NCBI GenBank assembly: GCA_012295275.1
Contig: CM022671.1
Span: forward strand, 30,628,001 to 30,692,000
DNA: 64,000 nucleotides
Origin: Chrysomallon squamiferum
Lineage: Eukaryota > Animalia > Mollusca
Direction: 5' to 3'
Each line of letters starts with the position of its first letter. The first letter of the stretch is position 1. A program made the position numbers and the translations under genes. This document shows positions 5,931 to 53,550 of the stretch, in pieces. Under the pieces are notes generated by a model that was not told the origin of the DNA, searched no databases, and saw only the letters and a list, made by a program, of their open reading frames with translations.

Positions 5931-7599
5931 ACAAAAAGTAAAATATATTAAAATGTAAATAAGAAAGAAAAACAAACAAACAAAATAAACAACAGCCAGT
6001 TTGACAAATGTACGTAAGACTGCTAGATAAGAAGATCGATACAAAATACATACATACATACATACAGATGTATATATATAAAGACAAACATATATATTAT
6101 ACGTTAACATAGATCAGACATACATACAAACACATAGGTAGGGAGACAGACAGATCAGTGGATATACATAGACAGACTGACAGATAGTTTATAATACACG
6201 TATGCAATATTTCAGCAGTTTTGAAAACAATACTAAAATGACTAGAAACTCAGTACATCGTCAGGAAACAAAAATTTAAATTTATCTTCTGTTTAGATTC
6301 TTTCATTTGCCTTCGCATCTCTTGAAATATGTTCTGCCTGTTTTATCACGGACCTAATATGCTTCTCAATACATCTCTGCTATTTCTGTAAGTTAAACTT
6401 TCACGTGAAGCAAATTATCACAATAATTCTAGACTCTTAAAGCTGTTTGTCTGTCATTATTCATCGAAAGTTATATTTTTCAGAATGGACACTTTGATTC
6501 TAGTCGTTGTCGTAGTCGTAACGGTGATGTGTATAGCTGCCGCTGCTACAGTGTGCTGTGTGTGTACAAGACGGTTCTCTGGTAAAAGGGAATTAAAAAG
6601 GGGACACGCGAGGGATACTAACATTGTTATATTATATGCAGGTACAAAGACGTGTTTTTTTATATGTATATAGTTCATTTATTTTATTATTTTAAAATTA
6701 TTTTGTTCAAAAGTCAGGTTATGGTGATTTTAATTTATACATTAGTGAATGTAATCATTAAATGGCTCATTAAACATGTTTTCCCGCTTTATTTACACAT
6801 TTAAGTTTTTACCAGGCTGAAAAACATAATAAATTTCTGGATGGTTCTTAAAAACAGACAGAAATCTCTGAGTAGCGAAACTGATTTAACAAGGAAATGT
6901 GCATGTTTACTTACGTTCAATAGTCATCATTGTTAATGCCTTGGTCACAGCAGGCATCATTTTCATCATCATCATCATCATCATCGACTTCGGCGTAATT
7001 TTATGCTACAAATAATGAAGATGAGATCAGTCATGGACGTTAGAGATATCCATAAGTTTCAAAAATTTTGATATTAAGATATTTATAGTGTAACTTTTCT
7101 CTCAGGCGAAATTCAACAAATGATTCCTCTCGTCAAACCAGATTCTCAACGACCTTCGCTGGAAATACAGCCATTTGATATGTGTGACTTGCCAACACCG
7201 CTGCAACCACCACTACGCTCAGAAAACTCGAAGACTTTAACAAATCCTGGTGCTCTCTCAAACCAGAAAGGACTGGATTCTAGCAGAGCGAACATCTCAC
7301 AAAAAAAAATTGCTTGGGTATCAGAAGTTTCGCTATGCGCTGATCAGAGCAAGTCTGGTGATAATACTCTGACGTCTAAAACGCTTTCTGGAGATTCTAG
7401 AAGAACGCTGACAGAGGCACAAGAAAACCGTGCAGTCCCAGTCGATGGCAACGAAGCTGAGAGTCTGCAGCGTGCAGTCAAACCGGCTTGGACACAGCCT
7501 TGTCCTGGTGATCAAAGCGTAAACGCCATTTCTTTTATTGACAAGAAAAGGAAAAAGAATCGAGTGAAAGTAAAATTTGATGATAGACGAAGAACATGA
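4292..7599 (+). CDS. Shisa/CYYR1/WBP1-like single-pass membrane protein with a small Cys-rich ectodomain (~251 aa, 4 exons)
   Basis: Exons 4292-4349 (signal peptide MATYMNLFRSMVAVAFIVA, donor gtgaga), 5681-5786 (RSALQCYQDVNTTVTCDSGCCGQSSAQYCCTGSL, C-C-CCG-YCC pattern), 6484-6581 (TM LILVVVVVVTVMCIAAAATV then CCVC; an alternative in-phase donor follows 6641) and 7106-7599 (cytoplasmic tail). All junctions are GT-AG with consistent phases 1/2/1. Confidence 0.8.
4630..5070. repeat. (TAG/GTA)n low-complexity intronic repeat
   Basis: Explains the poly-V and poly-T ORFs in the track. Confidence 0.8.
5335..5658. repeat. (TAA)n microsatellite
   Basis: Direct inspection. Confidence 0.9.
5842..5925. 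repeat. (GA)n microsatellite
   Basis: Direct inspection; similar tracts at 7708-7783, 10738-10832 and 14321-14442. Confidence 0.95.
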
Positions 7600-15052: not shown

Positions 15053-15320
15053 TCAGTTGCTCGTTTTCTCCTTTCTCACAGCAGTTGTGACGTGCTTAAC
15101 CTTGAGGGGGATTTTCAGTTGAATGTGTGAGAATTTTTGCCATTTTTTCCCCCTGCTCCCAGTCAAGTGTGGGTCCGGACCTTTGAGACCCTCTTTCTGG
15201 TAATGAGTGATAAGTTCCTTCAAATCCGTCGTCTCCTTTCCAGACGCGAAAATGTAAAAATAGACTTGGCGGTTGTACTCCTTCTGATGTATGACGTAAT
15301 GTCTTATTTCTCCAAGATGG
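15053..15320 (-). CDS. Last exon of the adaptor gene: C-terminal half of the SH2 domain
   Basis: HLGEIRHYVIHQKEYNRQVYFYIFASGKETTDLKELITHYQKEGL...IQLKIPLKV shows the SH2 betaD (RHYxI), alphaB (LxELIxHY) and betaG (LxxP) signatures. Acceptor ttattccag. Missing from the ORF track. Confidence 0.85.
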
Positions 15321-15342
15321 CTGGAATAAATAAATAGAAAGT

Positions 15343-15423
<81 letters not shown>

Positions 15424-18400
15424 GGATGGATGGACGGACGGATAACCCGTATGGATGGATAAATAAATAAATAAATAAGTAAATAAATAAATAATTAAAT
15501 AAGTAAATGAGTAAAAGTAAGTAAGTAAGTAAGTAAGTAAATAAATAAATAAATAAGTAAATAAGTAATGATGTAATTAAGTAAATAAATAAATATATAT
15601 GTAAATAAGTAATGATGTATTTAAGTAAATAAATAATTAAAATTTAATAAATAAATTTAATAAATAAATAAATAAATTTGTAAATAAGTAAGTAATTAAT
15701 TAAATAAATAAATAAATAAATAAAACTGTGTGTGTGTATGGCCTAGATAGAGAGATAGATATACAGATGTATAGATATATAGATAGATAGATGGATGGAT
15801 GGATGGATGGATGGATATATAGATGTCTGATAGATAGACAGATAACTAAATCAATAGATATGTAAACAAATATCATTAGAAAGAAATTAGATAAGTAAAT
15901 AAATAAATAAACTGATTGGAACGGGAAACAAATACATAGGTGCAATGAAGTAGAATTTAGTCATTATTTTTATTGAGATCTTTCCCTATCTTAGAAAATA
16001 TGCGTGCACATTAAAATAATAATTCTGTTCTTTTAATTTATTTAACATGAATAATGAAAAACTTATTCATTATTGATATTTCTGTTCACATATCATTTCA
16101 GTTAGATTATCACAGTTCGCATGGTCAAGATAAATAATTATCACTAGTTTATATTTTGTAAAATCTCCGAGCCAGGTAAATACATCTTGTCTGTTTTTCT
16201 TACCTTACTGAGATAACGAACTGATTGTTTTTCCTTCTTCGCCAAACTATAAAGTTTCCATCTTCTTTTTTGAATTTATCCATAGTTGGTTTAATCTGGG
16301 AAAAAAAAAAAAAAATATAAAATAAAATATATATATATAGTGAACAGAAAAAAGATTCCGTCCCAGACGGCTTTAAACATTTTTCTTCGTAACACTTCAT
16401 TTCTTCTTCATTTACATTTCGGTTACTTAAATAGCATTAGTGAGCATGCACGAATAATATTACCATTCTCACATATCATCTCAATAGTATTACTACCGTT
16501 ACTTCTGCTGCTGCTGCTGCTACTACTATAATAACAGCTATTACAACTACAGCTACTGCACCTACTGGTATGTATATTACTACTATTATTACTACCTCTA
16601 CTCACAGTCATTTCTGTTACATCAGGGCACCAGCCAGGAATGTCAGAATCAGGAATGTTTGGAACAGACGTGAAAACGGGCGTGGATTCAGAACGTATTC
16701 GTTTCATGGGAAGTGGCGGCTTCTCTTGCTGCAGTGACATGGACCGCGGTTTCGTCAGAGTGACGTCATCGCAAGGAATATATGTGTATTCGCTCAGCAA
16801 TACAGTTTGAGAATCGAGAGACCTAGCCGAGCTGATGCCTGTCAGAGTTGCTGGTGTTGTTTCGCTTAACCTGTGTCCACTCATGTCTATATAATCTTCA
16901 AATTCTTCTTCATCTTCGTTTGCCATGCAGGAATAGGTTAGCTGCCAGGAAACCTTTTTGCTTGTATTTTGGCTCGTGGCTGCAGTGATCTGCTCCGTAG
17001 GTTTCTGATCGCGGATCATCAAATTGGAATCAGACTGACTTAATTCCATCGGGAACAAACACGGTTCTGTTTCCATGGGAGAATCTGAAGAATTGGCGAA
17101 TCCGAAATAGCCGTCTGATGATCTAGTGATGATCAGAGGATCGGACTTTGACATCTTATTTTCGTTCAACAAAGAGTTGAGGTTTTGGCAGGGTGATGCT
17201 TGGTCGTTGGATGCAGTGGCAATGATGTTTTCATTGTTGGTATCAGCAAAACCGAAATAACCATCAGAATCTTGATGAATAACGCACGCTTGGGCTGGGT
17301 TTGAATTTTGTTTGGCCCCACCAGTGACGACCATATCTACGGGGTTGAAGTCGTCGTCTAGCATTTCAACATAACCGTCTGGACGATTTTTAAATGTACA
17401 TGGTTTCGGATTTGCATTTTGTGAATTTACTGTGCCTGTATTAGTGGAAAATGGTGTAGGATTATTGTTATCTGTAAGATTTGTACTAACTGACACTGGT
17501 AGTTGTTCACCAGATGCTAGCACACAAGGCACTGGTGGAACTGAGGTAAAAATTGGATGATTTAAATCAATGTAACTTCGTGGCTCACTGGAAACACATG
17601 GCTTTGGAGTGGACGTTGCTGTACACCCGGATGATGCTGAATTAAATAAAACACTTGGTGGTGATTGAACAGACATACCAGTTGTAGACATCACTGGTGA
17701 CATTACTGACTGAGGCATGGATGTCGTTGTCTGAGACGTATTGACAGCAACATTCTTGAGACCAGAGGTCGAAACTCCAGGACTGTTTGAACTGGTACTT
17801 GAATTTTTCATATAAACTAAACTAGGATCTCGGTTATCTGGTTCAGGAGGTAATCCAGCTCGGCTTGCCTGGCCCGGGTTAGAGTACGTCGTATTTGCTG
17901 TTAGAAACTGCCGCACGGTCATCGGACCTGGGAGTGGGTTATTTTTCATAAAGTGTTCCTTGATGCAGATTTTATTATCTTTTGCTATGACCTTGTACTG
18001 AGGTCTGGTCACAGTCTGTGTACACGATGGATTTTCTGATTCCGTAGTTTGGCGTATTTCTTTCACCTCTGTCTGTTGCATGGAGTGATTTAAGAAACTC
18101 GAATTCGTCTGAAGAGACGGCCACTCTGGGTCTGGGAACACCATGCTGTTTAACTCGCGTGAAGCAGTCTCGAGCTCTGCAGCTGTCAGGTGGGTAGAAA
18201 CGGGTACATGGTTTGGTGTTGATTGACTGCTGGAAATGGGTACACGTTTTAGAGTGGTGAGACTGTCACAAAACTGCTGGTGTGTTGGCACTGTGAGGCT
18301 TGTCCCAGAGTTAATGGGTGTTGTAGTACATGAAGTCAGTATACAGCGAGACAGATTATTGAACGACGTACTGTTTATCTAAAAATACAGTAAAGTGATA

Positions 18401-19550
18401 ACGAAAGCAAAATTAAAGTGTGAATATTTGCATATCTCATTATGCCTAAAACACTTCTTAATTAATTCTAATTCGATAAAGAGAATCTCATTTAATTATT
18501 ATTTACAAATGCATTAAAGGACCATTCAGTGAAGTGATATCAGCTGAAACACTTACAGCATCAGAAAACTGCATATTTGAAGTGAGAGTTTGGCTGGTTA
18601 CGGGGATGTTGTAAGTCATGTCACAAATCATTTGAATATCTTCTTTTAAGCCTGCAGTCTGCAGCTGTCCGTTCTGACTCTGGTCCAGGTGATTCTGCTG
18701 GTTTGGCTGACGAGTCTGTGAAGGCAGAGTGATAGGATACGATGGCCTGCCATACACAAAACGTTTAGTGTCATCAGTAGCTTCAACCTTCTTCAGTGAA
18801 AGCTGTCTTCCCTGGAGATTTGAAGGAAAGTTGATTTAAAATGAAATGTTTGTTCAGTTAGCGTTTGTTGTTGAAACGATGAGTGAAGCTGGTGATGAAT
18901 ACAATGATCATGTTGGTAATAATGAACATGATGATGATGATGATTGTAATGATGAACATGGTGATGATGATTGTATTGTTGAACATGACAATGATGTTGG
19001 TAATGAGGAACATGGTGAATATTTTAAATCCTAGTAATGATGAATATGATGATGATGATGTTGATGCTTGTATAAGTGAACATAACAACGATGATACTAA
19101 TGATGAAAATGATGTTGATGATGCCTGTAATCATGAATGTAAAGAAAAAAAAAAAAAAAAAGAAATGATATTATGTATTTGCTTTGCCGCATTAAATCTG
19201 AATACACCTAGTGTACGCTAACAGTTTATTTTAACAAACAAACCTTGAGAAGTCTTGCTGGAGTATTCCAGGAGATAGACAGATCTGGTCCCATGATCAC
19301 GTAGTTAGGAAGATAATTAAGAATATTCTCCAGACTAGAGGCCAAACTTGCATCCATTTCTGTGGAGATTGACTGGAATTCATAATGACCTGGTTCAAAT
19401 TCAATTTTAACATGCAGTTCCATAGAGTGAAGACCTGCAAAAGAAATATCTTAATATGTAATATAAAACATCTTAAAAAATACACACACACACGGACACA
19501 CAGACACAGGCACACACACACAGACACCCCCACCCACCCACACACACACC

Positions 19551-19593
<43 letters not shown>

Positions 19594-19784
19594 ACACACA
19601 GACACCCCCCCACATATATATATATATATATATATATATTGAGAAATAGAAACATAGAATAAAGACGTGAACAAAAAATAATGGTATAGAATTTTTAATC
19701 TAACATCCGGACAGGATGTTTCAGGAACTTTCAGTTCTTAGCAAGAAAAATGACGTCAGTGTCATGTATTTGTATAACCTATTA

Positions 19785-19838
<54 letters not shown>

Positions 19839-20245
19839 GGCTCTGGGAGGGGTATGATGAAAGTGCCAAACCATTCAAAGCTAAATAAGAATTATATCCA
19901 TAAATGTGTTGCTTGACTGCTACATGAATGAATGTACTTGACGTACATTTTAATCAGACTACAGTTCCTTTGTTATGTATAACTGAAGTTTGTATTACAT
20001 TTCTTTTCTACGGTAACACTATAGCTAATTCAGCAAAGAGAACATGAACTGACTTGAAATTCCCACTTTCATAATAGATGTCGTAATAACCGCTTTATTC
20101 TAGGAATGTTGTAAAGACCCGCAAAGTTTGTTTGGAAATAATATATTTCTATTTGCTTTTGAAAAGAGGAGTGCCTTCTTTTCGATGTTATTATTATTAT
20201 TATTATTGTTCGTGTTGTTGTTGTTATTATTGTTTTGTTTTGTTG

Positions 20246-20295
<50 letters not shown>

Positions 20296-20452
20296 ATTAT
20301 TATTATTATTATAAATATTATTATTATTATTATTAATATTAATATCGTTATTACTTTTGTTGTACTGTTAGGGCACTTGTTTTCCTTGCCACAACTACAT
20401 CACTATTTTTCATCACGGCTTCTTCTACTACTACAAATATCTCTATCCTTAA

Positions 20453-20494
<42 letters not shown>

Positions 20495-20972
20495 AATCGT
20501 CATCATCATCTGTGTTATATATTATCAATATCATCAAAGGTTTTACAGAATTTATTTATAGACGACCGGAAACTACCGTTCTAGATTTCTTTTGTCGCTA
20601 CTATTCGTTCAATCAATCAGAGCCAGGAAACACACACCTTGAATTATCTACGTAAGAACAAGCCTACAGAAAAAAAAGCGCTTCACAAAACATTAAAACA
20701 ACAGTAAGAAGTGGACCAGATATTTACACTGTCTGACGCCCACACGAATTAGCGTTCAGGATGTAAAAGGGAAGAAAGGGATTTCCTCTACCCATCCAAT
20801 GAATGAATGAATGAATGAATGAATGAACGAACGAATGAATGAATGCACAGAAGAATAAATGAATACATAAATAAATGGATACAAATATTTCCAGAGCTGA
20901 AACGGGTTTCGATATGGATACAGAAAAGTTAAACATTATAAAACTGATAATTTCATTAGAAGAATTTTTTTG

Positions 20973-21007
<35 letters not shown>

Positions 21008-22001
21008 TATTGTAATACACATACGTTGTAATTACAATAATCAGTTATTTTTAATACTTGATATTCCGAGAACATAATATACATTTATGACACTATTATT
21101 ATTATTGTTATTAATATTATATATAATGTGTCTCTGTGAATATTTTAAGGATCGGGTGAAGTCGTTTGTAATTATATTGTGTTGTAATTAAACACAAAAA
21201 TAAATTATACAAAGTTAATAAAGCATAATCAAATTATTCATATTTATTTATTTATTTATTTGTTTTAATTGTATGTGTTTTCTTTTTCCTTCTTTCTTTT
21301 TAACTGACTGCAAAACAATATATATACATGTAGAACGAATGTTACGCTTGGTTAACTATTATTACCTACTGTAATGTACAAATCTTTATTATGAAGAGAG
21401 AAAACACACGAAGCAGAGTCGAGTTTCGTGTTTCGTCATGTGTGCGATTGTTGATCACATGTACGTGAAGCTACATAGCCATAGCTACAAAAAGTATGTC
21501 ACTCAAGATTTGTTCTTTTAAACAAAGATGTATCTTTTTCTTTAACTTTACGTATGTATGAATACATGTATGTATCTATATTTATGTATACATTACGCAT
21601 GTATGTACTTAAGTATGTACGCATGTATATATGTTCGTAAGTATGTTTGTACTTACGTTGATACGTACATACGTATCCATGTCTGTATGTGTGTTTTTAT
21701 GTGAATGCATGTCTGAAATAATTTTTTTTTTTTAAATAAACAGTCGTTCGGATTGCACTGTTTCTCCTAACTCAGGTAAAATCAATTATAATGTGCTTGC
21801 AGGCAGCCTGTTACTCATTAATGAATTTCACGGTGAGTCATTCTGCTGTTTGTGGACTGCTGGCCCAGATGTCTCCAGTCATTGTATGAACTCGCGATCT
21901 CAGTGACGCAGAACGATGAAACAAACAAAGTACCAACGTACAGACGACACACATACAACAGCGCACGTTTGAATATGTATAAACATCCAGATGTGTGTGT
22001 G

Positions 22002-22053
<52 letters not shown>

Positions 22054-22366
22054 ATGTGTTATTATTTGATTTAAAATAATAATGTACAATTTTTGTAATA
22101 TGTTGGGTGTTTTTTACGTATGAATAAGATGTATCCATGTATACATGAATATGTGTGTGTCACAAACAAAGAATGTATTTTTGTTTATATATTTTTTTAT
22201 AAATACGTTTCTTGAATTTAAATCACTCACACTCTTATCATTATCAAAATATAAATTGATCATATGTCTAACAAAACATTTATAGCTCTATATATATATT
22301 TTTTTTTTTATTTTTTTTTTTTATCAAGCCCGTAACATCCAGGATACAAGAGCAATAAAAAAAAAG

Positions 22367-22397
<31 letters not shown>

Positions 22398-24380
22398 CAC
22401 ATAAAAAACCCCAAATAACATTAATATTCTGTCTGTGTTAGAGCAGATTATTTTTTATCATACGTCACGAGATGTGTCTGTATCTTTCATAACTGAATTA
22501 ATTAGAGTCACCTGCATATCGTGGTGACGTGCGTTCACTTTGTTCAAACCGACTCCGGATTCTTTTCCTTTATCTTATGGCAAGTGTGTCTTGGTTAATT
22601 TCTTTTAAAATACGGACATGCAGTAGCAAAGTTAAAGCACAAATACCACGGGCATGATTTTTTTCTAAGGCATATAAACTGTTAGTAATTTAGTTGTTGT
22701 AGAAAGACTGTACTTGAACGCACGCACTCCCTTCCTAACAACTACATCTGATAAGTAAAGCTTTTGTGTACACATAAAATAAAGCCTTGTAATTATCTAC
22801 GTATGCATCAATGTACTTAGCATTGATCAGTCTGTCTTAAGTACGTCTAATTAAACAATATTCGAGAACGCTCTGGCTGGCGCAGGAGGACAAAGTTCAG
22901 TCACGACCTCACAAACCCAGTCACATGCCGCTGACGAGACTCGAACGTGTGGCACCCATTCGCCACCGCACTCTATAGGCAGACGATAATACTAATCGGC
23001 ATTGAAGACAACCGTGCTTTAAATAGCCAGTGCTTATTATAAAGTGTACTGTTTTTAGTTTTTGTTTAGCACGTTTTAATACTGACAAATAGTCATAGTA
23101 GGTGTGAAATATACTTCTATGTATGTATGTATGTGTGTATGTATGTATTAAATATTGTTTGTATTGAGTATATGTATGTATATGTATATATACATATATG
23201 TAAGTATGCATGTATGTATGTATGAATGCATATACTATATATGTGTATGTCATATGTATGTATGCGTATACTGTGTATATATATGCATGTATATATGTAT
23301 GCATGTATGTATGAATGCATATAATATATATGTGTATGTCATATGTATGTATGCGTATACTGTTTGTGGATGTGAATGAAACGTATTTCTGAGATGTTCC
23401 TATCACCATGTTGTATCCCACGAAGTATGTTTTTTTTTTTAAGCAAATTACACAGTGATCATTTATTATTTATTTACGAAATCACTGTGTAATTTGCTGC
23501 ATCAATCAGACAAATTCGTTACTGCTGATGAGAATGGCTGATCGATTTCTGCTTCAGTATTGTGAATACTCTCTTTGTTGTGATTAATACTGCAGTAGTG
23601 TGGAATGATTTGTGTGAGTAATAGGCTAGCGTTTCATTTCTTCTTTAAAAATAATTTAAAAAATTGTTAAATTTAAGACTGCCATGGAAGTGCAAGTTAA
23701 TTTTTATTTTTATTTTTAAGTAATTAAATTTTTTTTTTTTTTTAGTTTTAGACATATTATTTGCTGCAAAATTTTGTTAGTATTTTTGAAAGAAGATACG
23801 TATCAACTATACAAACATACACAGCTATGGATCCACGAATACACATACACAAATGTACGCACATACTTACACACATAGTACATAAATGAATACACATACA
23901 TACACCCATAAATGCATATACACACAAACACCTGCACAATTACAAATATGCGTCACACGTATTTACTATTTTCCTAAATGCTGCTTATCACTAAGTAGAG
24001 CGTAAACAGTCGTAAATCTTACCTTGACATTTCTGAACGAGGAATTCCAAACAGTCCAGTCTTCGCTGTGCTTTCAAAGCTCTCAGTAAAACGTAAACAG
24101 TTTTTCCTTCCCCTGCCATCCAGTCCTTCAGCAGGCAACACCCTGGAAACGTCTTCTCCACCTGCGCACGACGTCGTATTGCTTCCAACTCGGAAACTGT
24201 CGTGATCCCCAGCTCCTCGGCCAGCCCCTCCCAGTTCCCCGAGTCCCCACGTCCGTCGTTATATAACATCAGACCTAACTTGTCTATTACAGGACAAGGG
24301 AGTTCGTATACACGGGTGTCCAGTATGGAAGGTGGAAGATCCTCTATTACCCCGTTCCACTGAGCGCGATGCCTCGCCAT
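15053..24380 (-). CDS. Death domain / RBD-like / Tyr-motif-rich / SH2 signalling adaptor (978 aa, 6 exons)
   Basis: Exons (-): 24380-24023 (death domain ...VIDKLGLML...WEGLAEELG...LLKDW...TVYVLLRAL...RLDCLEFL), 19434-19244 and 18811-18557 (RBD-like, ISWNTPARLLKGRQLSL), 18378-16606 (S/T/P/N-rich, ends IPGWCPDVTEMT), 16295-16204 (DGNFIVWRRRKNNQFVISV) and 15320-15053 (IRHYVI...LKELITHY...LKIPL, TGA). All junctions are GT-AG, phases 1/0/0/0/2, total 2937 nt in frame. Confidence 0.88.
15342..15440. repeat. (GATA)n/(GGAT)n microsatellite
   Basis: Direct inspection. Confidence 0.9.
16204..16295 (-). CDS. Exon 5 of the adaptor gene: SH2 alphaA-betaB-betaC
   Basis: IKPTMDKFKKEDGNFIVWRRRKNNQFVISV; acceptor (t)n-cccag, donor gtaaga. 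Confidence 0.85.
16606..18378 (-). CDS. Exon 4 of the adaptor gene: 591-codon disordered region with Tyr docking motifs
   Basis: Long ORF 16423..18291; acceptor tttttag at 18380-18379 and donor gtgagt after 16606. Confidence 0.9.
18880..19140. repeat. Degenerate (GAT)-rich intronic repeat (ATGATGAACATG...)
   Basis: Recurrent aatgatgaacat/gatgatgatg units; source of the spurious acidic and Met-rich ORFs. Confidence 0.7.
22830..23013 (-). mobile_element. tRNA-derived SINE copy 3 (intron 1 of the adaptor gene)
   Basis: Reverse complement reads GGTTGTCTTC...CGTTCGAGTCTCGTCAGCGGC...GGGTTTGTGAGGTCGTGACTGAACTTTGTCCTCCTGCGCCAG...AGACGTACTTAAGACAGA. Confidence 0.78.
23442..23498. repeat. Perfect 18-bp inverted repeat with a 21-nt loop
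   Basis: AGCAAATTACACAGTGAT (23442-23459) and ATCACTGTGTAATTTGCT (23481-23498). Confidence 0.9.
24023..24380 (-). CDS. First coding exon of the adaptor gene: death domain (MyD88/IRAK/Tube-like)
   Basis: ORF 23991..24380; start context AAAATGG; six-helix death-domain pattern; donor CAAG|gtaaga. Confidence 0.88.
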
Positions 24381-24469: not shown

Positions 24470-24555
24470 TTTCTTTCCAGGAAAAACCACGATCGTGTAG
24501 TAGGACAGGAAGATGAAAGGTGTAATCAAGCATGAAACGCATTCTGATTGGTTAA
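24470..24555 (-). promoter_or_regulatory. Candidate proximal promoter of the adaptor gene (CCAAT box, GAS-like palindrome)
   Basis: ATTGG at 24547-24551 (CCAAT on -) and TTCCAGGAA at 24475-24483, 100-170 bp upstream of the ATG. Motif match only. Confidence 0.3.
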
Positions 24556-26887: not shown

Positions 26888-28831
26888 TTTAAAATATCTA
26901 ATATTGAAATAATATTAGTTTTCAAGATAGTGATTACGAAAGATTAGGTAGTTTCAAACAATCACTGCACATGAAGACGCCTGTAAAGATACACCAAGTC
27001 ATCTACCAGAAAGTCAGAGAATCTTTGCTGCATTTTAATTAAATCATATATCTTTCACATTTTTGTCCCTGCAAAATCTTTTTATAAATTTATTATCACA
27101 TCACTTTTAGAGATGTAAAATCACTAACAAATTTTCCTTCTTTTCTCCTCCTTCAGTTTGATTTTAATTTTTCTTCTGTGTTAAATTAAAATTTTAAAAT
27201 TACTTAAATGTTTTTATTATTTTTTTTTTTTTTTTTTATTTACCTCTTACTTTTTATGTTTCTTTAAAATTTTAAAATTTTATTTTTGTTTTAGTGTTTT
27301 TTCAATTTTATTTCCTTGAATTACTTTGAATTTATAAATGTTTTTTAATATTTATTTTTTGTATTTTTTTAAAATTTTCTTTTTAGAGATTTTCCTTTAA
27401 AATGGCACATTTCAATTTTATTTTTTATTTATAATTTTTTATTTAAAACTTTTTATTTAAAAATTTAAATGTTAAATATTTATTTTACTTTTATTTTATT
27501 AATATTATTTTTTGTTTGTAATGGTTTATCTAAAACTTAGTTGTTTAAATTTTGTTATTATTTTACTTCTATATGTTACTTCCTTCACATTTTCTCCCTT
27601 GAAAAATTTGTGAAGTTTAGTTCAGTTATATTTATTTAAATTTATGATTTTAATTTCCTATCCATTTACTTTTTAATTTTTATTTGACTTTTTACATCTA
27701 GTGATTTAAATTTTAATTTCTTAATTTTTAAATTTTTATTTCCATGATTTAATTCCTTCAGTTTGTTTTCTTTTTAAAATATTATTTCATATTATTTTAT
27801 TTATATATTTTTCCTTTGTATTTTTGCATGTTTTCTTAAAAAAAAAGGCAACAATTATTTATATTTTGATTCTATGAAATATTTTTAAAATTCATTTTCA
27901 GTTTATTTTTTTAAAATGAACTGTTTCATATTTTATTTACATTTTATTTTTATCTTTTCTGCAATATTCTTTATATTTCATTTTCTTTTTCAATTTTTTC
28001 CAGCTTTATATCCTTAAATTCCACTATTTTATTATTATTATTATTATTATTTTTATTATTTTAAATGCTATTTTTAAAATATTTTTACTTTGTTACTTTC
28101 TTTAAATTTTGTTTCGTTATAGGTTATTTCATTTTTTGTTTTTTTCTTTTTTCAAGCAAATTTTAAAAGCTTTTTATTCAGTGTTATTTTTAAATATTTT
28201 AGTTTCGTGTTAAAGTTATTAGTCAAAATTTCAGAAGTTGTGTAACAGAAGATTAAAATCAGAAAAACAAATTTGTAAGGATGATAAAATGGCCTAGAAA
28301 GCAGAAGTTACAAAATATTTTTTTTAAAATTCTTTTTCTTTTGCATATCTTTTGAAAAACACATTTCTCCTGCTGGAAGCCACACAAAGTAATTACAACA
28401 ACAATAATAAACAATTCATTTAAAAATAATAAAAATAAATGTATTTATTGCTATTTATTTTCTACTTTATATATATGCAAATTACAATAATATTCTGTTA
28501 GAAGATTAAATACCTAGATGCAGTTATAAATATATACTTGTAAATAATAAATAATATAACAAATCGTTTAAGATATGAAAGTGTTAATCTATGCCACACA
28601 TAACAAAATATTCTGCTTCTTTATTTTATAGAGTACATTCTATCAAAAAAACCTACAAAAGCAAACATAGAAACAAACAAAACAACAACAAAAAAACCCA
28701 GACATAAGCATACCAAAAAAAAATTAAAAAAAAAAAAAAAAAAATGAACGAATCAAAATAATAATAATAATACTATACTATGATTAGAGAGATTAAAATA
28801 TTTTCAGATTCTGTTTCTCATAATTATCCAC

Positions 28832-29158
28832 TTAGTTTCTTGTTTTTGATGAAATGTATCTAACAAATTGTCCATTGTCTGCTGTTGCTGTGATGATCAT
28901 ATTCAGTGATGTGACTGATGATGTCACAGGAAAATCAGCTGTTGATACATCAGTCTCTGCAACACGAAATAAGTCAGAGTAGCCATTTCTGGATCCAACA
29001 GCAACATTGTAGACCAAGGCTGATTGAGGGTGAGAGAAAACCCCACCCCAGTCCAGATGAACTGTAGTCCCCTTCCAGTGTATGTTAGCAGATGAACCTA
29101 AAAATACAAAGTTTAATTTAATAAATTTAAAAATTTACAGTTGTAACAAAACTATACA

Positions 29159-29197
<39 letters not shown>

Positions 29198-32100
29198 GTG
29201 TGTGTACTTATTAAATATTTTTAATTGTTTAAGCCTAAAACTGCAACAGTAATTACATAAAGCCAAACTTTGAACCATAGGCCATTTCTGTATATGTTTA
29301 TGTTCACAGTGTATTTTTGTCTGTTTGCACAAAGCAGAAAGTGTTAAAATATAGTAACTGTAACCTGTAAGCTGTGGTGGACGACTATCTACAACCACAG
29401 AACCAGATACAACATCGCTCTTCAGCTCTCGAGTATCTACTGCAACAACTTCGGCTGTGTATGTGACACCACTGGTCAGAGCTAAATCCACATCAATGTA
29501 GTTGCAGCTTGTGTTTGTCCATTTTGTCACTGGATCTTTTCCTGCAGTGATGCGGTAGAGGAAAGTTTTAGTGTTGCTGTCGTCGCCCAGCCTTGACCAG
29601 GTCACTTGGAGTCGTGATGTATCAGTCTGAACTGGAAGACTTACTGCAGGACCAGATCTTTGATTTGCCAGCAGAAACATGACTTTCCCATCCAGTGATG
29701 ACTGGGGCTGAAGTAACACTGTGTGAGGACCAACTGATGCTGAGGAGTGCAGCTCAATCTGGTTAAAACACTGAACCCTGGCATAAATCTTTTCATGATG
29801 ATAAGGTTTCGAGAGGACCAAGCTACATCTTGTAAGGTAAGTGGAGAGTTTCCATGGTTGTATGTGTTCAGACATAGACCTGTGTCCTGCAGATTAAAAT
29901 CATGTGTTAAATCATGAGATATCCCAGAGTTGAGATTATGAATTAATATATTTATTAAAACCCATTTAAAAAGCTTCATAAAATTAATTTTTTGCACCTC
30001 TGTAAGCCTATTATTAAAATATGGTGAATTAGTAATTCTCTTATTCAAAGATTTTAGACTTATATATGCTTAATTTATCTTTTGAATAAATATGTTAATT
30101 TCCATAAAATAAAAATAGCATGACTAGTTTGGAATGATTGCAATATACTGATTCAGAATTTAAAACATTTATGAAGTCATAAATATTAATCAAACATTAT
30201 ATCTTCTTTAAATGTACAATATATTAGTCTTTAGAAACTTTATCTGCTGATTTAATAATCATAGCAATGCAGTCTGTAATTATTTCACAGAATATTTGAA
30301 GTTTCTTGTTAAACAAACATTTACTTACCCAGTGCACACCTACAAGATTTCAAGCCACTTTCTTTGTCCTCTACACTCCACGATACCTTGACAACAACTC
30401 TCTCAACACTTCTTTCAGAAGAATAGACCAGATTTGCTGTTGCTTTAGTAATTACTGGTGGTGTATGGTCAATAATTAAAACATCTGATTGAAACACTGA
30501 CACCAACTGTGCAGAATTTTCAGCAGTTACAGTGACAAAAATTCGGGTGCCATGAGGCACTTCAGCTTCTACGAGTTCGTGGAAATGGAGAAAAGTTGGC
30601 TTCAGGGTCTGTATTTGAAATCCTCCTCTTGTTGTTCCTACTCCAATCTTAATTAGTTTTGGTTCAGTTTCAGGATCAGACACACGAGCACTGACCAGCA
30701 GGAGAGATGGAGATATCTGCTGAATGGTTAAAGCTCTGGCACCATCAACCTCTTTTGTTTCATTACAGGAATGAATGGTTACATCATTTTCAGATATAAA
30801 GTTAGTTTTGTCTGTCATTATCTGAAGGTTTAGAATTCCAGATCGTGATGTGAGAAAATAATAATGGGCTTCAGCTTTTGTTTTGTTATCAGTTAACATG
30901 AATTTTGCTGGAATACATTCATCATCAACTTGAAAGAAAATGCTTGTTTCAGGAAATAAATGTTTACTCTGTATTAATTTTGTGACAGAAATTTTTAAAT
31001 ACATTCTTTCTTTTACATCAATTGTGGCTTTAAGGATATTTTCTGGATTGTCTATGGATGTGCTGTTATTGTTCCATGATATATTCAAAGTGATATCAGA
31101 AAAGTTCAGACATTCAAAACCAGTGGGTGGAGTGGAATCAATGAGTACAGGAGGAGACTTCACCACAGCACTGTGATGTCCTGTCAAATCAACTGCAGTT
31201 ACCGAAGCCTGATATTTCTCACCTTGAACAAGGGACAAATTATTAATAACTACCTTGTTTTGAAAGCCTACACTAATCTGAGCAAGCTGTGAGAGAATGT
31301 CTGTGGTTTTGTAAACTGCTACTCTGTAACTGACTATAGCTGAATGGCGGTCTTGAAATCCCACGCCAGGAGACCCCAAATGTTGATGTTGATGACTGAG
31401 ATACCTTGTTGACATGCTCTGCAGTGTTGAAGGCAACTCCAGCAAGTGGAACTTCATCATCTACAACAACTCCATCAGAGAAAGCAACTCCAGAGAGACC
31501 AGCTGTATTGAGAGCTTTGACTGTTGCGTAGTATCTGATGCCTGGTTTAAGCAGCTTCTGAGAAATGGAATAATTTGTATTTCTTCCAACACTTGTTGGT
31601 TTTATCACATCAGATCCTGAAAAATTTAAAGAAAAAATATTATAAATAAATATGTCTAAACTGATTGCTGTAATAGTACCAAGATAACTTGATTAAAATC
31701 TGTTGAATTGTCTCTTTTGTATTAGTATTATTATTATTATTGGTTTTGACTAATTGTTTTAGGTAAGAGAAAAATGATTTAAGTGCACATTTGGCAATAA
31801 AAGGTTAATAAGAGTAAATAAGAAACAATTAAATTTAGATCAACATTAACAATCAAACAATAAGAAATGCCCATAAGGGCATGAGCCAGAATAATAAGAT
31901 ATACCATAAGGGCTGGAACCCATTTGAAATACAAACTGCCATCAGTTTTAAGAATACTGCTGATCTTTATTTCTGGATATTTGTCAGTGTCTGTCAGCAG
32001 TGGTATGTTTACACAAGGCTCTAGGACATCTGTTTGTTCACAGGTCCTGCCAACAATGGCACACGTACAGTCCTTAGAGCAGTAATGGATGTCACAGGAA

Positions 32101-35100
32101 TGTCTCTGAATCTCCAGTAAACCTTTATCAGCTTCCTGATCTGAAGCAATAACTGTGACAGTTAGTTTACTAAACTCTGTTAATAAACCCACAGCATTTT
32201 CAGCACGTATTGAGAGAATAATGTTTTCACCGTTTTTTAGTTGGTCAGAAAGTGAAACGGAGACTGACTGGTCTTCAGAACTGAATGATGGTGATAAATG
32301 TGTTATTCCCTGTGACAGTTCAGATCCATCGTAAGATCTGCTCACTGTTAGATGATACTGAGTGATTTTTGATTCAGAATCAGAAAAACCATACCATGTT
32401 AAATTAACCTGTGTCAGGGTCTTATTTTTACTTTGTACATGTTCCCATGTCAGTGGGTTCTTGAATCCACCCAGCTGAGGAGGAGTGGAGTCTATTAACA
32501 GATCTTCACTGTGAGCTGTAGTGCACAAACCTGCCTGGTTGCAACCAGTAACTGACAAGGAATAAACATCACCACTTCTGAGTCGGTTGATTTTGCTGAA
32601 TGTTAATATCTGTTCATGTTCTGCTCCTATCTCTTTTCTCTCTAATGAAACTTTACTCTCATGGTGTGTTTTTAATGTAAGAATGTGTTTTACAATTGGA
32701 CTTTCTCTGTCATCAAACCTCCAGGCTACATGCAGTAAAGAATTATCTGACTGTACAGAAGTATTTTGTGTTTGGTTTAAATTAGGAGCTACAAAATGTG
32801 GACGTTGTATTACTTGAGGTGTGGTGTTGTCTACAATGAAAGATGATGACACAGACTGTAAGCCAGCATTGTTTGTTGCTCTCACAGTGATGTGCAGTGG
32901 AACAGAAACTGGTAACTGAAGTCCAGTTTTTAGAAATGTATCTGACAGCTGTGTGTTTTCAAAAGATGTCAGATTACATTGATAGGGTTGATAACCGAGA
33001 CACCATTCAAAGTGTTTAATTTCCGACTCTGGATCTTCAAATCCTTGCCAGTGGCCTGAGAGTGAAGATCTGCAGAGAAGAAAAAAATTAAAAAAAGAAA
33101 CAAAAAAGAAACAAAAAATTGAAATTAATAAGAAAATGAAATAATATAAGAAAAGTGTAGTTAAATCTTTTTATGAGACTTTTAAATTTTATCTTTCATT
33201 TTTTCTTCTAATTGATGCAGATTCTAAATTAATTTACTTTTCTAAAAGGAATTTTCCACTGACTCATCAATTGTTGTTTTCACTTATAACACTTCTACTG
33301 TTATTATTAATATTATTATTACTACATACTGTTATGACTACCACCACAACAACTACTACTATTACAACAACAACTACTCCTACCACCATTACTACTACTA
33401 TTACTAGAACTGTAATTATTTTTATAAATAAACCCTCATGACTGTTACATGCACATCAATTGAACACTTATCAGTGTAATACTCAGGTATGTTATTAGGA
33501 AATATATAGTTTTACCTTTGACTGACGTAGTGCTGGTGATTTTGTTTGTATCCAGCAAACACTTGACCTGTTAAAGGTGGTGTGTTGTCCATGATGAGTC
33601 CATCTGACGATGTCTCCGTACACAGACCCGCCTGGTTACAAGCTTTAACTTTTACATAGTATTTCTTACCAGGAATAAATGACACTGTCCATGTGAAGTC
33701 TGTAATAAATAAAACATTAAATAAATTAGCATACATACTGTAACAGTCCAAAAAATAATATAAATTAGATTTGAATGAAGACATCAGCTAATAAAATAAA
33801 TTGAATAAATAATAATATAAATAAATAAATAAATAAAAATATTAAATAACAAACTAGAACAATCAATAAATACATAAATAAATACAAATAAAATAAATAA
33901 ATAGATAAATAAACAAACAAACAAACAAACTTAAAATTTTAAAACTATAATACAGCAGGTGGTAAATATACTTACTTGTACGTAGGCCAACAGACACTAA
34001 AGGTGCCACATCATCATTAAGTGGATTTGAACCAAGAGCCACCTGGTAGCCAGCAATACCTGAATAAGCATCTCTGAATCCCGACCAGTGACAGTGATAG
34101 GTGGTCAGATTTGACTGGTAATCTATATCCTATTAATATGAATATTTATAGATATATAAAAATTATATATACATATATAGACAGATAGATGGATAAAGTT
34201 TGTGATTTGATTTGTGTCAGATTTATTGTTGCATTATAATAAATTGAAGGTTCTTACTATTTTTATTTTATTTTAGATAATAGTTTTTTTCTCTGATGCT
34301 CTCTTAACAAAACTTTTAGGTTAAACAAACAAACAAAAATTCCCAAATCTTTCTCCCAAAATTATAAAATGATATGTAAAAATCCTTTTATGTTGTTTAG
34401 CAAGAAGTAAACTATGCATTTTCTGTAGCAGCTGGTTTCCTTTCTGAGATCAGTTGTCTTTTAATAATCATTAACATGTTGAAATACACTAAAAATCGCA
34501 GTTAAATACCTTCTCACTTTGATGACCATCTCTGACAACACCAGTGTCAGGGGGTGAAGTGTCAATGACAAATGGAACTGCATGTTGAACTGTAGATAAT
34601 CCTGCTTGATTAGTTACCTGAAAATGAATATCCGAGGTAATTTAGAAGAATACTGATATATGTGATGAATTACTATTACCAAAAAGTTAAAGAAGATCCT
34701 TCTGAACAAAATAAATAGACTATAGTCATACCATATTCGATAAAACAACAACAACAACAACAGTACTGATGATAATAATAATAATAATAATAATCATAAT
34801 AGTAATATTAATAATAATAATAACAATAAAAGTTAATAATAATAATAATAAAAGTAATAATGAAGACAATAACAATAATAATAATAAATATAATATTAAT
34901 AATAGTGGTATTAAAAATAATGATGAAAATAACAATAATGATGATAATAATAAAATTAACAACAACAACAACAATAATGAGAATTAAAATACTATTATAT
35001 TTCTTTAATTAATATATAATTGGATATTGTGCATGTCCTTCTCAAAGGCATATTATATAAATAAAATACATTGATTTAACTTTTGAAAAAGATTTTTCTA

Positions 35101-36165
35101 GCATGTAAATCATGGAATGTAAAGTTTTAAAATAAATAAAATGAAAGATGTAATCACTAAGCAGATAAATAAATGAATAAATTTTTAACTAAGAAAAAAA
35201 TAAACCAATAAATAAATGAAATAAATAAATAGATAAATAATTTGATAAAAAAATATAAATAAATAAGTGACTAATTTACTAAATAAATTATTAAAAGAAA
35301 TAACAAAACAAACAAACCAATAAATAAATAAAACAAACAAAGAAACAAAACAAACTGTTCCTCACCTCAAATCTAATCTGATACTGATGTCCGTCAGTAA
35401 ATTCTGATTGACTAATATGAGCAAAATTGTCAGTGTACTTCTTCATAACAGTTACATCGTATTTATGATCAACAGAGCCAATATCCAGGCTAACATCAAC
35501 CAGCCCACTTTCTAGGTCTTCAAAACCATGCCACTGTATTGTAAATTCATTCCATGGTAGAAAATGCTGATGGAAGAGAAATCCCTCTATATCTACTGTA
35601 CCTGGAATGGGGGGCGTTGTATCTACCAAAACTCCTTCAGAGACAGAAGATGATGTGTGTCCAAGGTAGTCAGATGCTGGAGAAAGGTAATTCATATTTT
35701 TAATATTTTATTATTAACATAGTTTTAAAAAAAAAAAAAAATATGATAAGAATTTTGTATTTGAACTTTGCAGTGATATGGGTAAATAAAGAAATTTAAA
35801 AAAAAACCACAATAACAACAATAAAGTAAAGAATACTAAAATAAAATTTGTAATTTAGATAGTGAATCAAAAATATAGTAAAGCAAATGTCTGCTAAAAT
35901 AAAAATAACTAAATATCAAAAAAAACAAATCTAAACTTTTTAAAAGACAAGATCATAATAATAATAAAAAAATATTGTTTTGTAAATGAATGAATTGTGT
36001 TTCTAAAATACTAATTTGTTTACTAAACCAGCATTGAAAATCATGAATAAAATTATTAAAAATTATTTGAAATTCTGGATGCAAATTATAAACCTTTGAC
36101 AGTGACATAGTAGATTTGCCCATTGACAAGTGTAAGATTTTGTATCAGGTGACTTGTTACCATGC
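28832..36165 (-). CDS. 3' part of a giant FN3-like (DTTPP / W.GF.D.ES) repeat protein gene; 5'-truncated and frame-disrupted (pseudogene or assembly error)
   Basis: Exons (-): ~36165-36094, 35676-35366, 34617-34510, 34129-33976, 33699-33516, 33069-31905, 31616-30329, 29886-29365, 29097-28832 (TAA). Repeating motifs D(T/S/N)(T/S)PP, WxGFxDxES and YYVxVKAxNxAGL, plus a Cys-rich insert HSCDIHYCSKDCTCAIVGRTC. Frame breaks at ~31940 and 31360-31362; no start or signal exon. Confidence 0.8.
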
Positions 36166-36278: not shown

Positions 36279-39257
36279 ACTTGTATCAATACAAAAACCA
36301 ATGTTTTACCTTGCCCCAGTTCCCCAGATCAGACTGAAAAAGAAAATAAATGTGACAAAGCCACTGGAAAAAATAAATTTAATTCATGGATCTGAACTGA
36401 CTCTTATATACTGGGACAACCGTAAGTTTTTTTAAAATTACAGTTTTAAAATCACTTATAAGAAATTCTGGAATTTGAAATGCTTAGAAACCCAAACGAT
36501 TTTCTTCTTTTTTTCACGGCAGAGATAATAAAATTTTATAGTTTTCCAGTATTTTACTGTATACAAACTTTATTTCATTTATAAAATTATTAAAACTATA
36601 TACTATTATGTGCATACTATCTGTATAACCTACATATGAAATAGAATTGGGTCCCATAGGTTTTATTTTCAGCTGTCTCCTTATAGTCCAAAATTCACCC
36701 AAATTCCAAAATCTGAAACATTTCTATGAATCTTAATATATTCTATTTTTTAAATATATAGAGAAGAGGCTTATTAAACAGGCCTAATATTTATATAATA
36801 AATTTAATAATAACAGACGACAGTAATACAGATATTTGTTATATTATTTATTGTAATATTATATTTTGTTAATGTACTGTTTATATTAAGCTACATCATG
36901 TTAGTAGCATTATTTTTATATTTTATGTGCAGATGCTCAGGTATGGCGAAGTATACAGGAGCCTTGTGGTATGGAAAACCAAAACATCCTGACTGCTGAA
37001 TCATTTCATACTGAAGTAATTGTTCTATTTATTAATTAATTGTCATTGTTATTCTTGTTATTACTATCATTGTTATTGTTATTATTATTCTTGTTATTGT
37101 TGTTGTTATTTTTGTCAATGATTAAATTACTGTTAATATTATTGTTATTATTTTTGATATTATAATCATCATTCTTGTTATTACCGTTATCATTGTTATT
37201 TTGTTAGTTATTATCATTACATTGCTGTTATTGTTATTGTTATTATTACTGTTGTTGTTATTCTTGAATATTGGTATTCTATCATGGCATTTTAATATTG
37301 ACACTTAAAACAACAGTATGTTTATTTGCTAATTATTATTTCTTAAATTATTATTATTAAATGTATTAAAAACATGACCTATAAATATCATTTTATTAAA
37401 ATGTCTGAAAATTATTATTTATACAAACATTATTTTAGTTCTTTTATGTTCAGATATTTGTTATAAACTAAATAATTGTCTTTTTAAACAACCTGATATT
37501 TTTGTTCAGGTATGTGAAAAAGCTTTCACACCAGCATTATTATCCTTTGGTAAGCCTGACTACCAGAAACGAAGTACCCAAGATTTGTCTTCTCCTAGAC
37601 ATTTCATCATAGCAGAAATTAGACCTGAACTTCATAATTCCATTCCTTCTATTGTCACCACAAAGGTAGATGGTAAAGAAGATAATATTCTGAAGGCTTC
37701 GATTGAATTTGTTGATGCTGAAGGAGATGAGCTGATATTTGCTATAAAAACTCAACCCAAGCACGGCACAGCCAATGTTTCTCTTGATGGATTGTTGCTG
37801 TACATGCCTCAACAGGATTTCACTGGTGTTGATGAAATAGAAATATCTGCTACTGAGGTGATAAATGCTCCAGGTGCTAAGCCTCACACTCTTACAGCAT
37901 TTATCACTATAATAGTGGACAATGTCAATGGTGCTCCAACTCTGTTTTTCCAAAATTCCAGTGACAGTCTGTTGTTGAATTCTGCAGAAGAAAGACTGGT
38001 GGAGGTAGAACTCACAAATGATAAAACAAAACATCTTGTAGGTACTTTTTGGATGACGGATGCAGACGCTAATGATAGCCTTTCATACTTGCAGAAATTT
38101 CCAGAACTGTCACCAACTCTGAACTTTTCACTAACTCCACTACCTTCAGAACAAGATGATGCAGAAGACTTTTTTGCAGGAACACCTGGTACACTAACTA
38201 AACAGCAGCTCTGGCTGTATCATCTTCCAAATTTCACTGGTTCAGCAAATGTATCTTTCATTATCAAGGATGGAGATAATGCTTACAGTCATCCGATTAC
38301 CATTCAGGTTCTTGTTAACCCACAAGTGGATTCTGGTCTCTCTGCTGTCATCATTGCTGTGATTGTTGTGTCTGGTGTCATTGTCTTGGCTCTCATTGCT
38401 GCTGCTTCATTCAGATACTATCTGAAATCCAGGAACAAAATCCGAGATCTGAGGTGAGATCAAAGTTGTCAGAAACAAGTGACTTAATATTTATTTTATT
38501 GATACATGTATTATAAATATGACGTATGATTATCATTTTGTTAAAATTTACAGAACTAATATGTAAATATATGAATGCATAATTCTTTAGCTGTTTTCTT
38601 TTTTTGGCCTATATGGTTTTATTCTTTGTTATTTATTTATTTATTTATTTTTCATTTTTCATTTTTCATTTTTTTATTTTGTATTAATGAATAGTTTTGT
38701 TTTTTGAAAAGTTAAACTATGCCAAAACCCTTTCAAAAATAATAACAAAGACCAGGGCTCATTGAAATAATAATAATAATAAATAACCAAAAATATGTGT
38801 GTATGTGTATATATATATATATATGTTTGTATGTATGTATGCGTGTATGTATGTGTAAATAAAATAAAATAAATAAATTAAAATAAAGTAAATTAAAATT
38901 AAGATATATCAATAAACACACAAATAAAAAAAAGAAGACAAAGATTAAAGTTTCAACAGCTTACACAAAACTAATTATTAAAAAACCCAATATATATATA
39001 TATAACAATAATAATAATAATAAACAACAAACAATATCTGTTATTTCAGATTGTAAAATATTTTACAGCTAATTATTAACTTCTTTTTTATTTTTCTCAG
39101 TATGCTTCCAGACACTATTTTTGATGAAACACACAATGTTGTGTACTCTAACAACCTCAGTCCTTCGAAACTGCAGGAAATGTTCCAGTTGGGATATATT
39201 GGACCACAGACCTTACTGGATGAGAAAACTCCCCAGATGACTGAAGTTGAGATTTAA
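36279..39257 (+). CDS. 3' part of a large type-I membrane protein with cadherin-like/bacterial-Ig-like domains; 5' end missing
   Basis: Exons (+): 36279-36421, 36933-37015, 37510-38453, 39101-39257 (TAA), with consistent phases. Motifs DAEGDEL.F...PKHGTA.V..DG.L.Y.P..DFTG.D, VDNVNGAP and TDADAND; TM VIIAVIVVSGVIVLALIAAASF followed by RYYLKSR; tail ends TEVEI. The first visible exon opens with a splice acceptor (phase 2), not an ATG. Confidence 0.82.

Positions 39258-51006: not shown

Positions 51007-51044
<38 letters not shown>

Positions 51045-53515: not shown

Positions 53516-53550
<35 letters not shown>

Follow-up and report, generated by a model that had tools for sequence, protein, structure and literature searches.

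An apparently undescribed family of adaptor-like proteins that combine a death domain with a Raf-like ubiquitin fold and an SH2 domain bearing tryptophan in molluscs, traced from a gene of Chrysomallon squamiferum

Introduction

BCAP (PIK3AP1), BANK1 and Dof are catalytically inert scaffolds that carry TIR, DBB and ankyrin domains, with an N-terminal domain for interaction with innate receptors, and YxxM motifs for PI3K. In SLP-76, BLNK and CLNK, an N-terminal SAM or leucine-zipper region is combined with a canonical C-terminal SH2 domain. Here we describe a gene on the minus strand of a 64,000-nucleotide (nt) stretch of the genome of the mollusc Chrysomallon squamiferum (assembly GCA_012295275.1, contig CM022671.1, positions 30,628,001 to 30,692,000; this whole stretch is the window, and all coordinates refer to it). 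The gene encodes a protein of 978 amino acids (aa) with an N-terminal death domain (DD), a domain resembling Raf's Ras-binding domain (RBD), a long linker with tyrosine motifs and a C-terminal SH2 domain. Its plan of an inert scaffold with an N-terminal interaction domain and YxxM motifs recalls BCAP, BANK1 and Dof, but in the snail protein a DD, the RBD-like domain and a pseudo-SH2 domain stand in place of TIR, DBB and ankyrin domains, and no homology to these scaffolds was detected. It differs from SLP-76, BLNK and CLNK in its N terminus, which consists of the DD and the RBD-like domain, and in an SH2 domain that lacks the conserved arginine.

Other described systems are alike in single parts. 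MyD88 and the ancestral CIKS/Act1 share with the snail protein an N-terminal DD of similar fold, a linker and one C-terminal interaction domain (PMC11087794), but the C-terminal domain of the snail protein is an SH2 rather than a TIR or SEFIR domain, and the RBD-like domain follows directly after the DD. Unlike the IRAK, Pelle and Tube proteins, the snail family has no kinase or pseudokinase domain. p75NTR and NRADD provide the best sequence match of the DD; however, in these transmembrane receptors the DD is C-terminal, whereas the snail DD is N-terminal and no receptor ectodomain is present. For the SH2 domain, the best match both by sequence and in Foldseek is with Grb7, Grb10 and Grb14 (RA-PH-BPS-SH2), in which a C-terminal SH2 is likewise preceded by a ubiquitin-fold domain, but the snail protein is without PH and BPS and has a DD, a Raf-type ubiquitin fold and a tryptophan at SH2 position betaB5. 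The RBD of Raf kinases is the best match of the middle domain in the PDB, although the snail protein lacks the equivalents of the basic residues K84 and R89, the C1 domain and the kinase domain. SH2 domains without the arginine also occur in SH2D5, TYK2 and RIN2, and SH2D5 has the same tryptophan at the position of this FLVR arginine (PMC7530234), but the PTB-SH2 architecture of SH2D5 (PMC12406720) is unlike that of the snail protein. Finally, engineered DED-SH2 chimeras redirected tyrosine-kinase signals to caspases (Howard et al., as described in PMC2575513). These chimeras are artificial, and their closest natural counterpart would be the DD-RBD-SH2 protein of amphioxus, which has the SH2 arginine that the snail form has lost.

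Results

The six exons are spliced into a single protein

The six exons (Table 1) are separated by introns that all have GT-AG ends (5/5) and phases of 1, 0, 0, 0 and 2, in order, and the spliced frame of 2937 nt encodes 978 aa and a stop codon without internal stops. A search with exon 1 returned one protein among 420 candidates, the product of Gigantopelta aegis LOC121367931. Its isoform X1 (XP_041348320.1, 1025 aa), in which both Death and SH2 exceed the Pfam cut-offs, aligned to precisely these six blocks when compared with the window by tblastn. Identity between the two species was 76% in the DD, 81% over aa 120–194 and 72% in the SH2 domain (aa 845–978), compared with ∼30% in the linkers and 50% in the tyrosine tail, and we counted this preferential conservation of the three domains in favor of an adaptor. 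In the RefSeq isoform X2 of G. aegis, the sequence leaves the frame and stops at the expected start of exon 5, and the SH2 domain is missing.

Exon 4 was present in 9 of the 11 sequencing runs listed, two of which (X7 and X9, both from one study) are RNA. We mapped the stretch of exons 2–5 in X7 and X9 and compared these with two other runs. In contigs of both RNA runs, introns 2 and 3 were spliced out, with joints at 18378/18557 and 18810/19243 and CT..AC ends; these joints were missing from both of the other runs. An X7 contig of 2596 nt led from exon 2 through exon 3 to position 16677 in exon 4, and its 30 unaligned letters past exon 2 (30 letters are visible of each loose contig end) match the 3' end of exon 1. 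A second, overlapping contig joined exon 4 to exon 5 and ended in 30 unaligned letters that match the start of exon 6; the exon 5–6 end was likewise seen in X9. No single RNA contig spanned the distance from the DD to the SH2 domain; the break falls within exon 4, in the overlap of the two contigs. The RNA contigs support 5/5 junctions. Overall, the gene is real, expressed, conserved and spliced into a single protein, as the initial annotation had proposed when it joined the six exons into one open frame. The RefSeq orthologue rules out a chance joining of unrelated exons, as do the joints seen in RNA and the existence of the family described below. Variants listed in the mapped stretch lie mostly in exon 4 or in introns, and X7 has an in-frame 6-nt deletion at position 18125 in exon 4.

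Three folded domains flank a disordered linker

We next turned to the fold of the protein, using AlphaFold2 with a 30-row alignment on the G. aegis protein, so that the models described here are of orthologues and not of the window protein. The G. aegis model contained a confident DD (residues ∼12–127; helical, with a predicted local distance difference test score (pLDDT) mostly >90), followed directly by a domain of beta-beta-alpha-beta-alpha-beta order (129–209), a disordered region of ∼650 residues (215–866; pLDDT <50) and a confident SH2 domain (∼895–1015). The same three units, at lower confidence, appeared in the model of an amphioxus member of 339 aa. The orthologue model had no folded region beyond these three, and no TIR, kinase, pseudokinase, caspase, PH or BPS domain was found in it or in the Pfam scans. 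In the window protein itself, Pfam Death (PF00531) scored 25.8 bits against a cut-off of 22.6 over aa 49–114. By fold, the DD of the orthologue model matched MyD88 (Z score 11.8, root-mean-square deviation (rmsd) 3.4 over 103 residues) and a Pelle-Tube entry (Z 11.5, rmsd 1.9 over 97 residues). The death domain named in the earlier reading of the DNA is therefore borne out by Pfam score, helical-bundle model and fold matches.

The middle domain had been read as a Raf-type domain that could couple to small GTPases. Pfam RBD (PF02196) had no match in the window protein and matched only 1 of 30 family members, under the cut-off; the Saccoglossus member gave an E value of 3.5e-4. However, the three top PDB matches of a family profile built from 16 rows were all Raf RBDs (E values 0.001–0.03), and the order of strands and helices in the orthologue model fits a ubiquitin fold. 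This assignment is tentative and combines model topology with the profile, as the VIA and Foldseek lists for the full models were occupied by SH2 and DD matches. Raf contacts Ras with basic residues that lie in strand 2 and in helix 1 (K84–R89), and the R89L change almost abolishes KRAS binding (PMC7895934). In the register of the profile alignment to Raf RBDs, the column equivalent to K84 held Asn in 12 rows, Gly in 2, Gln in 1 and Thr in 1 (n = 16; Asn in the window protein), and the column equivalent to R89 held neither Arg nor Lys in any of the 16 rows, being gapped in 4, including that of the window. The window domain is also net acidic, with 6 Lys/Arg against 9 Asp/Glu. Because the equivalents of K84 and R89 are basic in 0/16 rows, Ras binding of the Raf type is unlikely and coupling to small GTPases is doubtful; the domain, although Raf-like in sequence, is probably not a Ras effector.

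The third domain retains its fold. Pfam SH2 (PF00017) did not match the separate exons of the window; the orthologue scored 27 bits against a cut-off of 21, and its modeled domain matched the SH2 fold with a Z score of 13.5 and an rmsd of 1.8 over 97 residues. Abl, Csk, PLC-gamma and Grb10 were matched at Z scores of 13.1–13.5, and Grb7 was the first-ranked Foldseek match. The domain had been taken for an SH2 domain of an adaptor coupled to tyrosine kinases; in alignments to Grb7, however, the FLVR arginine that binds phosphotyrosine is replaced by Trp877. Among 55 SH2 rows, betaB5 was Trp in 45, Arg in 8 (amphioxus only), His in 1 (Saccoglossus) and a gap in 1, and no variant at the Trp877 codon was listed among 4 runs. 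SH2 domains without the FLVR arginine do not bind phosphotyrosine by that residue, and the only human cases are RIN2, TYK2 and SH2D5; the SH2 domains of TYK2 and other JAKs bind receptor tails independently of phosphate (PMC7530234). Because betaB5 is Trp, the molluscan domain is a pseudo-SH2 and is unlikely to read phosphotyrosine. With its fixed Trp and 72% conservation, it is best read as repurposed rather than decayed. Because the amphioxus relatives retain Arg, the Trp of this family most likely arose independently of that in SH2D5.

We considered whether the snail protein could nevertheless bind phosphotyrosine through the SH2 domain and Ras-GTP through the RBD-like domain. Both folds are intact in the orthologue model, the amphioxus members keep the SH2 arginine, and in C. 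squamiferum Trp877 is followed by Arg878–Arg881, which might substitute in the manner of the p120RasGAP C-terminal SH2 domain, in which other basic residues are used (PMC7530234). However, the residues after the Trp are variable (betaB7 is Arg in 3/55 rows and betaD6 is Arg or Lys in 14/55), and the composition of the RBD-like domain described above points the same way. We therefore regard dual binding as highly improbable.

A second type of molluscan protein carries the same Trp-type SH2 domain. It comprises P0051 (Physella acuta LOC131937246) and the unnamed P0052 and P0060–P0062. In the Physella protein, a CARD (Pfam CARD_2, E value 9e-11) stands ahead of the SH2 domain in place of the DD and the RBD-like domain, and the SH2 domain scored 73 bits with the family SH2 profile, which suggests a swap of one death fold for another.

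The domain combination occurs in molluscs and invertebrate deuterostomes

A phmmer search with the G. aegis orthologue against 1.84 billion representative sequences gave 47 matches, and further proteins, from abalone, oyster and amphioxus, came from two additional searches. As judged by local domain profiles, the DD, RBD-like and SH2 domains occurred together in 35 of 73 proteins, isoforms and alleles counted, from gastropods, bivalves, amphioxus and Saccoglossus. The named members come from Gigantopelta, three Haliotis species, Patella, Aplysia, Argopecten, Mercenaria, two Saccostrea species, Branchiostoma (with two paralogue types) and Saccoglossus. The lophotrochozoan orthologues that the earlier reading had suggested looking for thus exist, and the presence of the family in invertebrate deuterostomes makes it older than had been guessed. 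Vertebrate and ecdysozoan members were not found in the searches run, and annelids and echinoderms were not identified among the matches.

Mollusc-only profiles were compared across these groups. The DD profile scored amphioxus at 61–75 bits, p75-like receptors at 49–62, Saccoglossus at 47.5 and the best PDB sequence at 41.5. The SH2 profile scored deuterostome regions at 39–50 bits, some alignments extending into the linker, against 31.6 for the best PDB sequence, Grb7, and the RBD profile scored the deuterostome RBDs at 15–25 bits. Because the mollusc-only profiles score the deuterostome DD and SH2 above the best PDB sequences and detect their RBDs, the results favor a single origin before the protostome-deuterostome split. 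The same scores, in a comparison made without rooted outgroups, disfavor independent assembly in molluscs and deuterostomes. In a family tree of 34 rows (one isoform omitted; midpoint-drawn, with long branches flagged), the gastropods were not recovered as one clade.

In the databases, the named members are labeled "uncharacterized" or "hypothetical," or they carry a locus code or the name "Death domain-containing" (the name look-up covered 10 of the 47 phmmer matches). The Aplysia protein belongs to a single-copy OrthoFinder orthogroup with oyster and Biomphalaria and without a fly or human gene (PMC9334734). No description of a DD-RBD-SH2 family was found in the literature searched by architecture terms and accessions, a search that left most subscription journals uncovered and a passing mention possible. 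The excerpts of PMC8195603 and 10.1101/046789 do not mention the family, and the supplements of a paper on amphioxus domain combinations (PMC2575513) hold no SH2 entry. In the ESM Atlas, neither the amphioxus nor the oyster-like member had a feature match, and the structure neighbors were single-domain matches at template-modeling (TM) scores <0.4, which implies neither absence nor novelty. Overall, the suspicion that no named family has this architecture holds for the sources searched: the family is apparently undescribed, although public databases already contain its proteins under Death and SH2 labels assigned automatically. The combination of domains is new, but the class to which it belongs, that of modular signaling adaptors, is known, and its function is inferred.

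YxxM motifs are enriched in the molluscan linkers

A phosphorylated YxxM motif is a docking site for PI3K p85. In the linkers of 24 mollusc-like proteins (one per gene or cluster), YxxM occurred 31 times against 10.1 expected, a number reached in 0/1000 shuffles, in 20 of the 24 proteins and mostly 50–185 residues N-terminal to the SH2 domain. Y-x-Y-I was present in 14/24 of these linkers against 0.4 expected in total, the pattern having been picked after inspection of the data, and the Grb2-type YxN motif was weakly enriched (33 against 24.3 expected; 43/1000 shuffles). Conserved tyrosine motifs in the tail, a part of the earlier reading, are supported (Table 1). The window protein contained no TRAF6-type motif. 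Three D-G-Y-hydrophobic repeats (Tyr604, Tyr642 and Tyr692; positions 17100–17400, aa 595–697), each preceded by a short hydrophobic run, number three in Gigantopelta and four in Haliotis.

A candidate PI3K dock and its alternatives

We posited that the 978-aa protein is an adaptor that is recruited through its DD to receptor-proximal assemblies, becomes tyrosine-phosphorylated and recruits PI3K through YxxM, a reading that we favor tentatively and place a little below an even chance. The DD would co-assemble with death domains of the MyD88/IRAK type or the p75/TNFR type, a Src/Syk-type kinase would phosphorylate the acidic tyrosine motifs and the SH2 domains of p85 would bind the resulting pYxxM. 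The pseudo-SH2 domain may bind a partner peptide without phosphate, as JAK-family SH2 domains do, and the RBD-like domain would form one unit with the DD without acting as a Ras-GTP effector. By analogy, the protein could act as BCAP does, a DD taking the role of the TIR domain. Candidate assemblies may be those of TLR/IL-17 signaling (MyD88, IRAK and CIKS; PMC11087794), in which the DD of an amphioxus DD-linker-SEFIR adaptor is required for NF-kB activation and the adaptor interacts with MyD88, or those of p75-like receptors (PMC2772990).

Several observations count against this proposal, and some of them favor other roles. The DD had been assigned to the MyD88/IRAK4/Tube pattern. However, among PDB sequences the mollusc DD profile scored NRADD (41.5 bits) and p75NTR (39.8) above MyD88 (36.6), IRAK4 was not among its 22 PDB matches, and the only full-length DD matches outside the family in the search of 1.84 billion representatives were two p75-like receptors. 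A specific assignment of this kind is therefore not upheld by sequence, although MyD88 and Pelle-Tube lead by fold, and, because p75NTR and MyD88 are equally near to the DD, an immune role is a possibility only. The protein might instead be an adaptor of a neurotrophin pathway, its DD binding that of a p75NTR-like receptor and its tail coupling to Trk or another receptor tyrosine kinase, with a neural or developmental role. The scores of invertebrate p75-like receptors given above fit this role, as does the occurrence of p75NTR and Trk in Lottia and of neurotrophins in amphioxus and Saccoglossus (PMC2772990). However, NRADD and p75NTR lead MyD88 by only 3–5 bits in a comparison without invertebrate MyD88, and DD similarity is no predictor of DD partners. 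We consider a neurotrophin role unlikely.

The DD is also not a constant part of the family. DD-less isoforms are annotated in G. aegis (RefSeq X3) and three Haliotis species, starting at or inside the RBD-like exon (P0005, P0006, P0008, P0009 and P0002); no alternative first exon matching them was found in the window. In the Aplysia clade (P0063/P0017, P0025, P0029, P0031 and P0037), part of helices 2–3 is lost while the RBD-like and SH2 domains are intact, and Pfam Death did not match P0063, P0017, P0025 or P0037, in which the DD is eroded. The molluscan protein could also be pictured as a brake or decoy, its DD capping death-domain polymers and its pseudo-SH2 and RBD-like domains serving autoinhibition or localization, so that NF-kB or apoptosis signaling would be dampened and no positive output would arise. 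The DD-less isoforms, the absence of key residues from both ligand-binding modules and the lack of a TIR, kinase or caspase domain are compatible with such a brake. So is one palindrome, TTCCNGGAA, at positions 24475–24483, ∼100 nt upstream of the ATG, which we take to be a STAT-type site, but at least one such palindrome arose in 35/100 shuffles, and it is not significant window-wide. The enriched tyrosine motifs point, by contrast, to an output. PI3K recruitment can itself dampen NF-kB, and a dampening role is thus partly compatible with a PI3K dock; as a separate explanation, we judge the brake improbable. The palindrome is the sole one of its type in the window, and a CCAAT-like box lies near 24545–24552.

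The remaining points concern the motifs on which PI3K docking depends. The 24 linkers are related, so that the motif counts are not independent. YxxM is lacking in 4 of the 24 (Mercenaria clade) and in one Saccostrea row, and in all 5 deuterostome linkers, three of which are short; tyrosine makes up 1.0% of the deuterostome linkers compared with 2.7% of the mollusc-like ones. Of the three YxxM sites in the window protein, a single one persists in G. aegis, where the motifs at Tyr604 and Tyr750 lack the Met. YxxM docking is therefore not a family-wide function. The amphioxus form appears to have the reciprocal design: with the SH2 arginine kept and almost no linker tyrosines, it would read rather than display phosphotyrosine.

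Table 1. Positions in the window of the exons and selected codons of the gene
Feature	Positions	Strand	Content	Support
Exon 1	24023..24380	-	aa 1-119, death domain	Pfam Death 25.8 bits; 76% identity to G. aegis; RNA junction to exon 2
Exon 2	19244..19434	-	aa 120-183, bulk of RBD-like domain	81% identity to G. aegis over aa 120-194
Exon 3	18557..18811	-	aa 184-268, final RBD strand and start of disordered linker	
Exon 4	16606..18378	-	aa 269-859, first SH2 strand preceded by a disordered linker that is rich in Ser/Thr/Pro and carries Tyr motifs	
Exon 5	16204..16295	-	aa 860-890, SH2 helix A and strands B-C	
Exon 6	15053..15320	-	aa 890-978 and stop, remaining SH2 and basic C-terminal tail	73% identity to G. 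aegis; RNA junction in X7 and X9
Tyr604	17362..17373	-	YxxM, first of three D-G-Y-hydrophobic repeats	Met not kept in G. aegis
Tyr764	16882..16893	-	acidic YxxM, predicted to dock PI3K p85	kept in G. aegis
Tyr799/Tyr801	16777..16788	-	Y-x-Y-I motif just before SH2	kept in G. aegis
Trp877 codon	16242..16244	-	SH2 betaB5, replaces FLVR arginine	aligned to Grb7 arginine

Neighboring genes

The window contains further coding sequence. On the minus strand, positions ∼45850–61770 hold a gene of several exons for a zinc carboxypeptidase (M14) in which catalytic units are repeated and a hydrophobic segment lies at the C terminus; we infer for it the name carboxypeptidase D-like. On the same strand, positions ∼28800–35710 hold exons of a large protein with Fn3-like repeats. 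Adjoining the latter, a plus-strand open reading frame of 359 aa (37378–38457) encodes a bacterial-Ig/cadherin-like domain as well as a hydrophobic membrane segment; the two are either separate genes or the result of an inversion. A plus-strand open frame of 173 aa (7078–7599), of ordinary composition and without a Pfam match, is probably an exon of a convergent neighbor gene.

Discussion

It usually takes several proteins to connect death-domain networks with phosphotyrosine networks, and here one conserved gene has both kinds of module. On the broadest interpretation, which we consider possible but rather doubtful, the proteins would form an ancient bilaterian family, lost in vertebrates and flies, that wires DD assemblies to tyrosine kinases and whose polarity was reversed in molluscs, from the phosphotyrosine reader of amphioxus to a PI3K dock. 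If this is true, the family would be a natural counterpart of the engineered death-fold-SH2 chimeras and a missing link from MyD88 or p75 to PI3K in mollusc immunity. Catalogs of immune genes based on human and fly miss the family because its orthogroup, single-copy in oyster, Aplysia and Biomphalaria, has no human or Drosophila member (PMC9334734). The split between Arg and Trp at betaB5 offers a natural pair in which to study the loss of phosphotyrosine binding by an SH2 domain that remains strongly conserved, and the proposals made here are testable in oyster, abalone, Biomphalaria and amphioxus.

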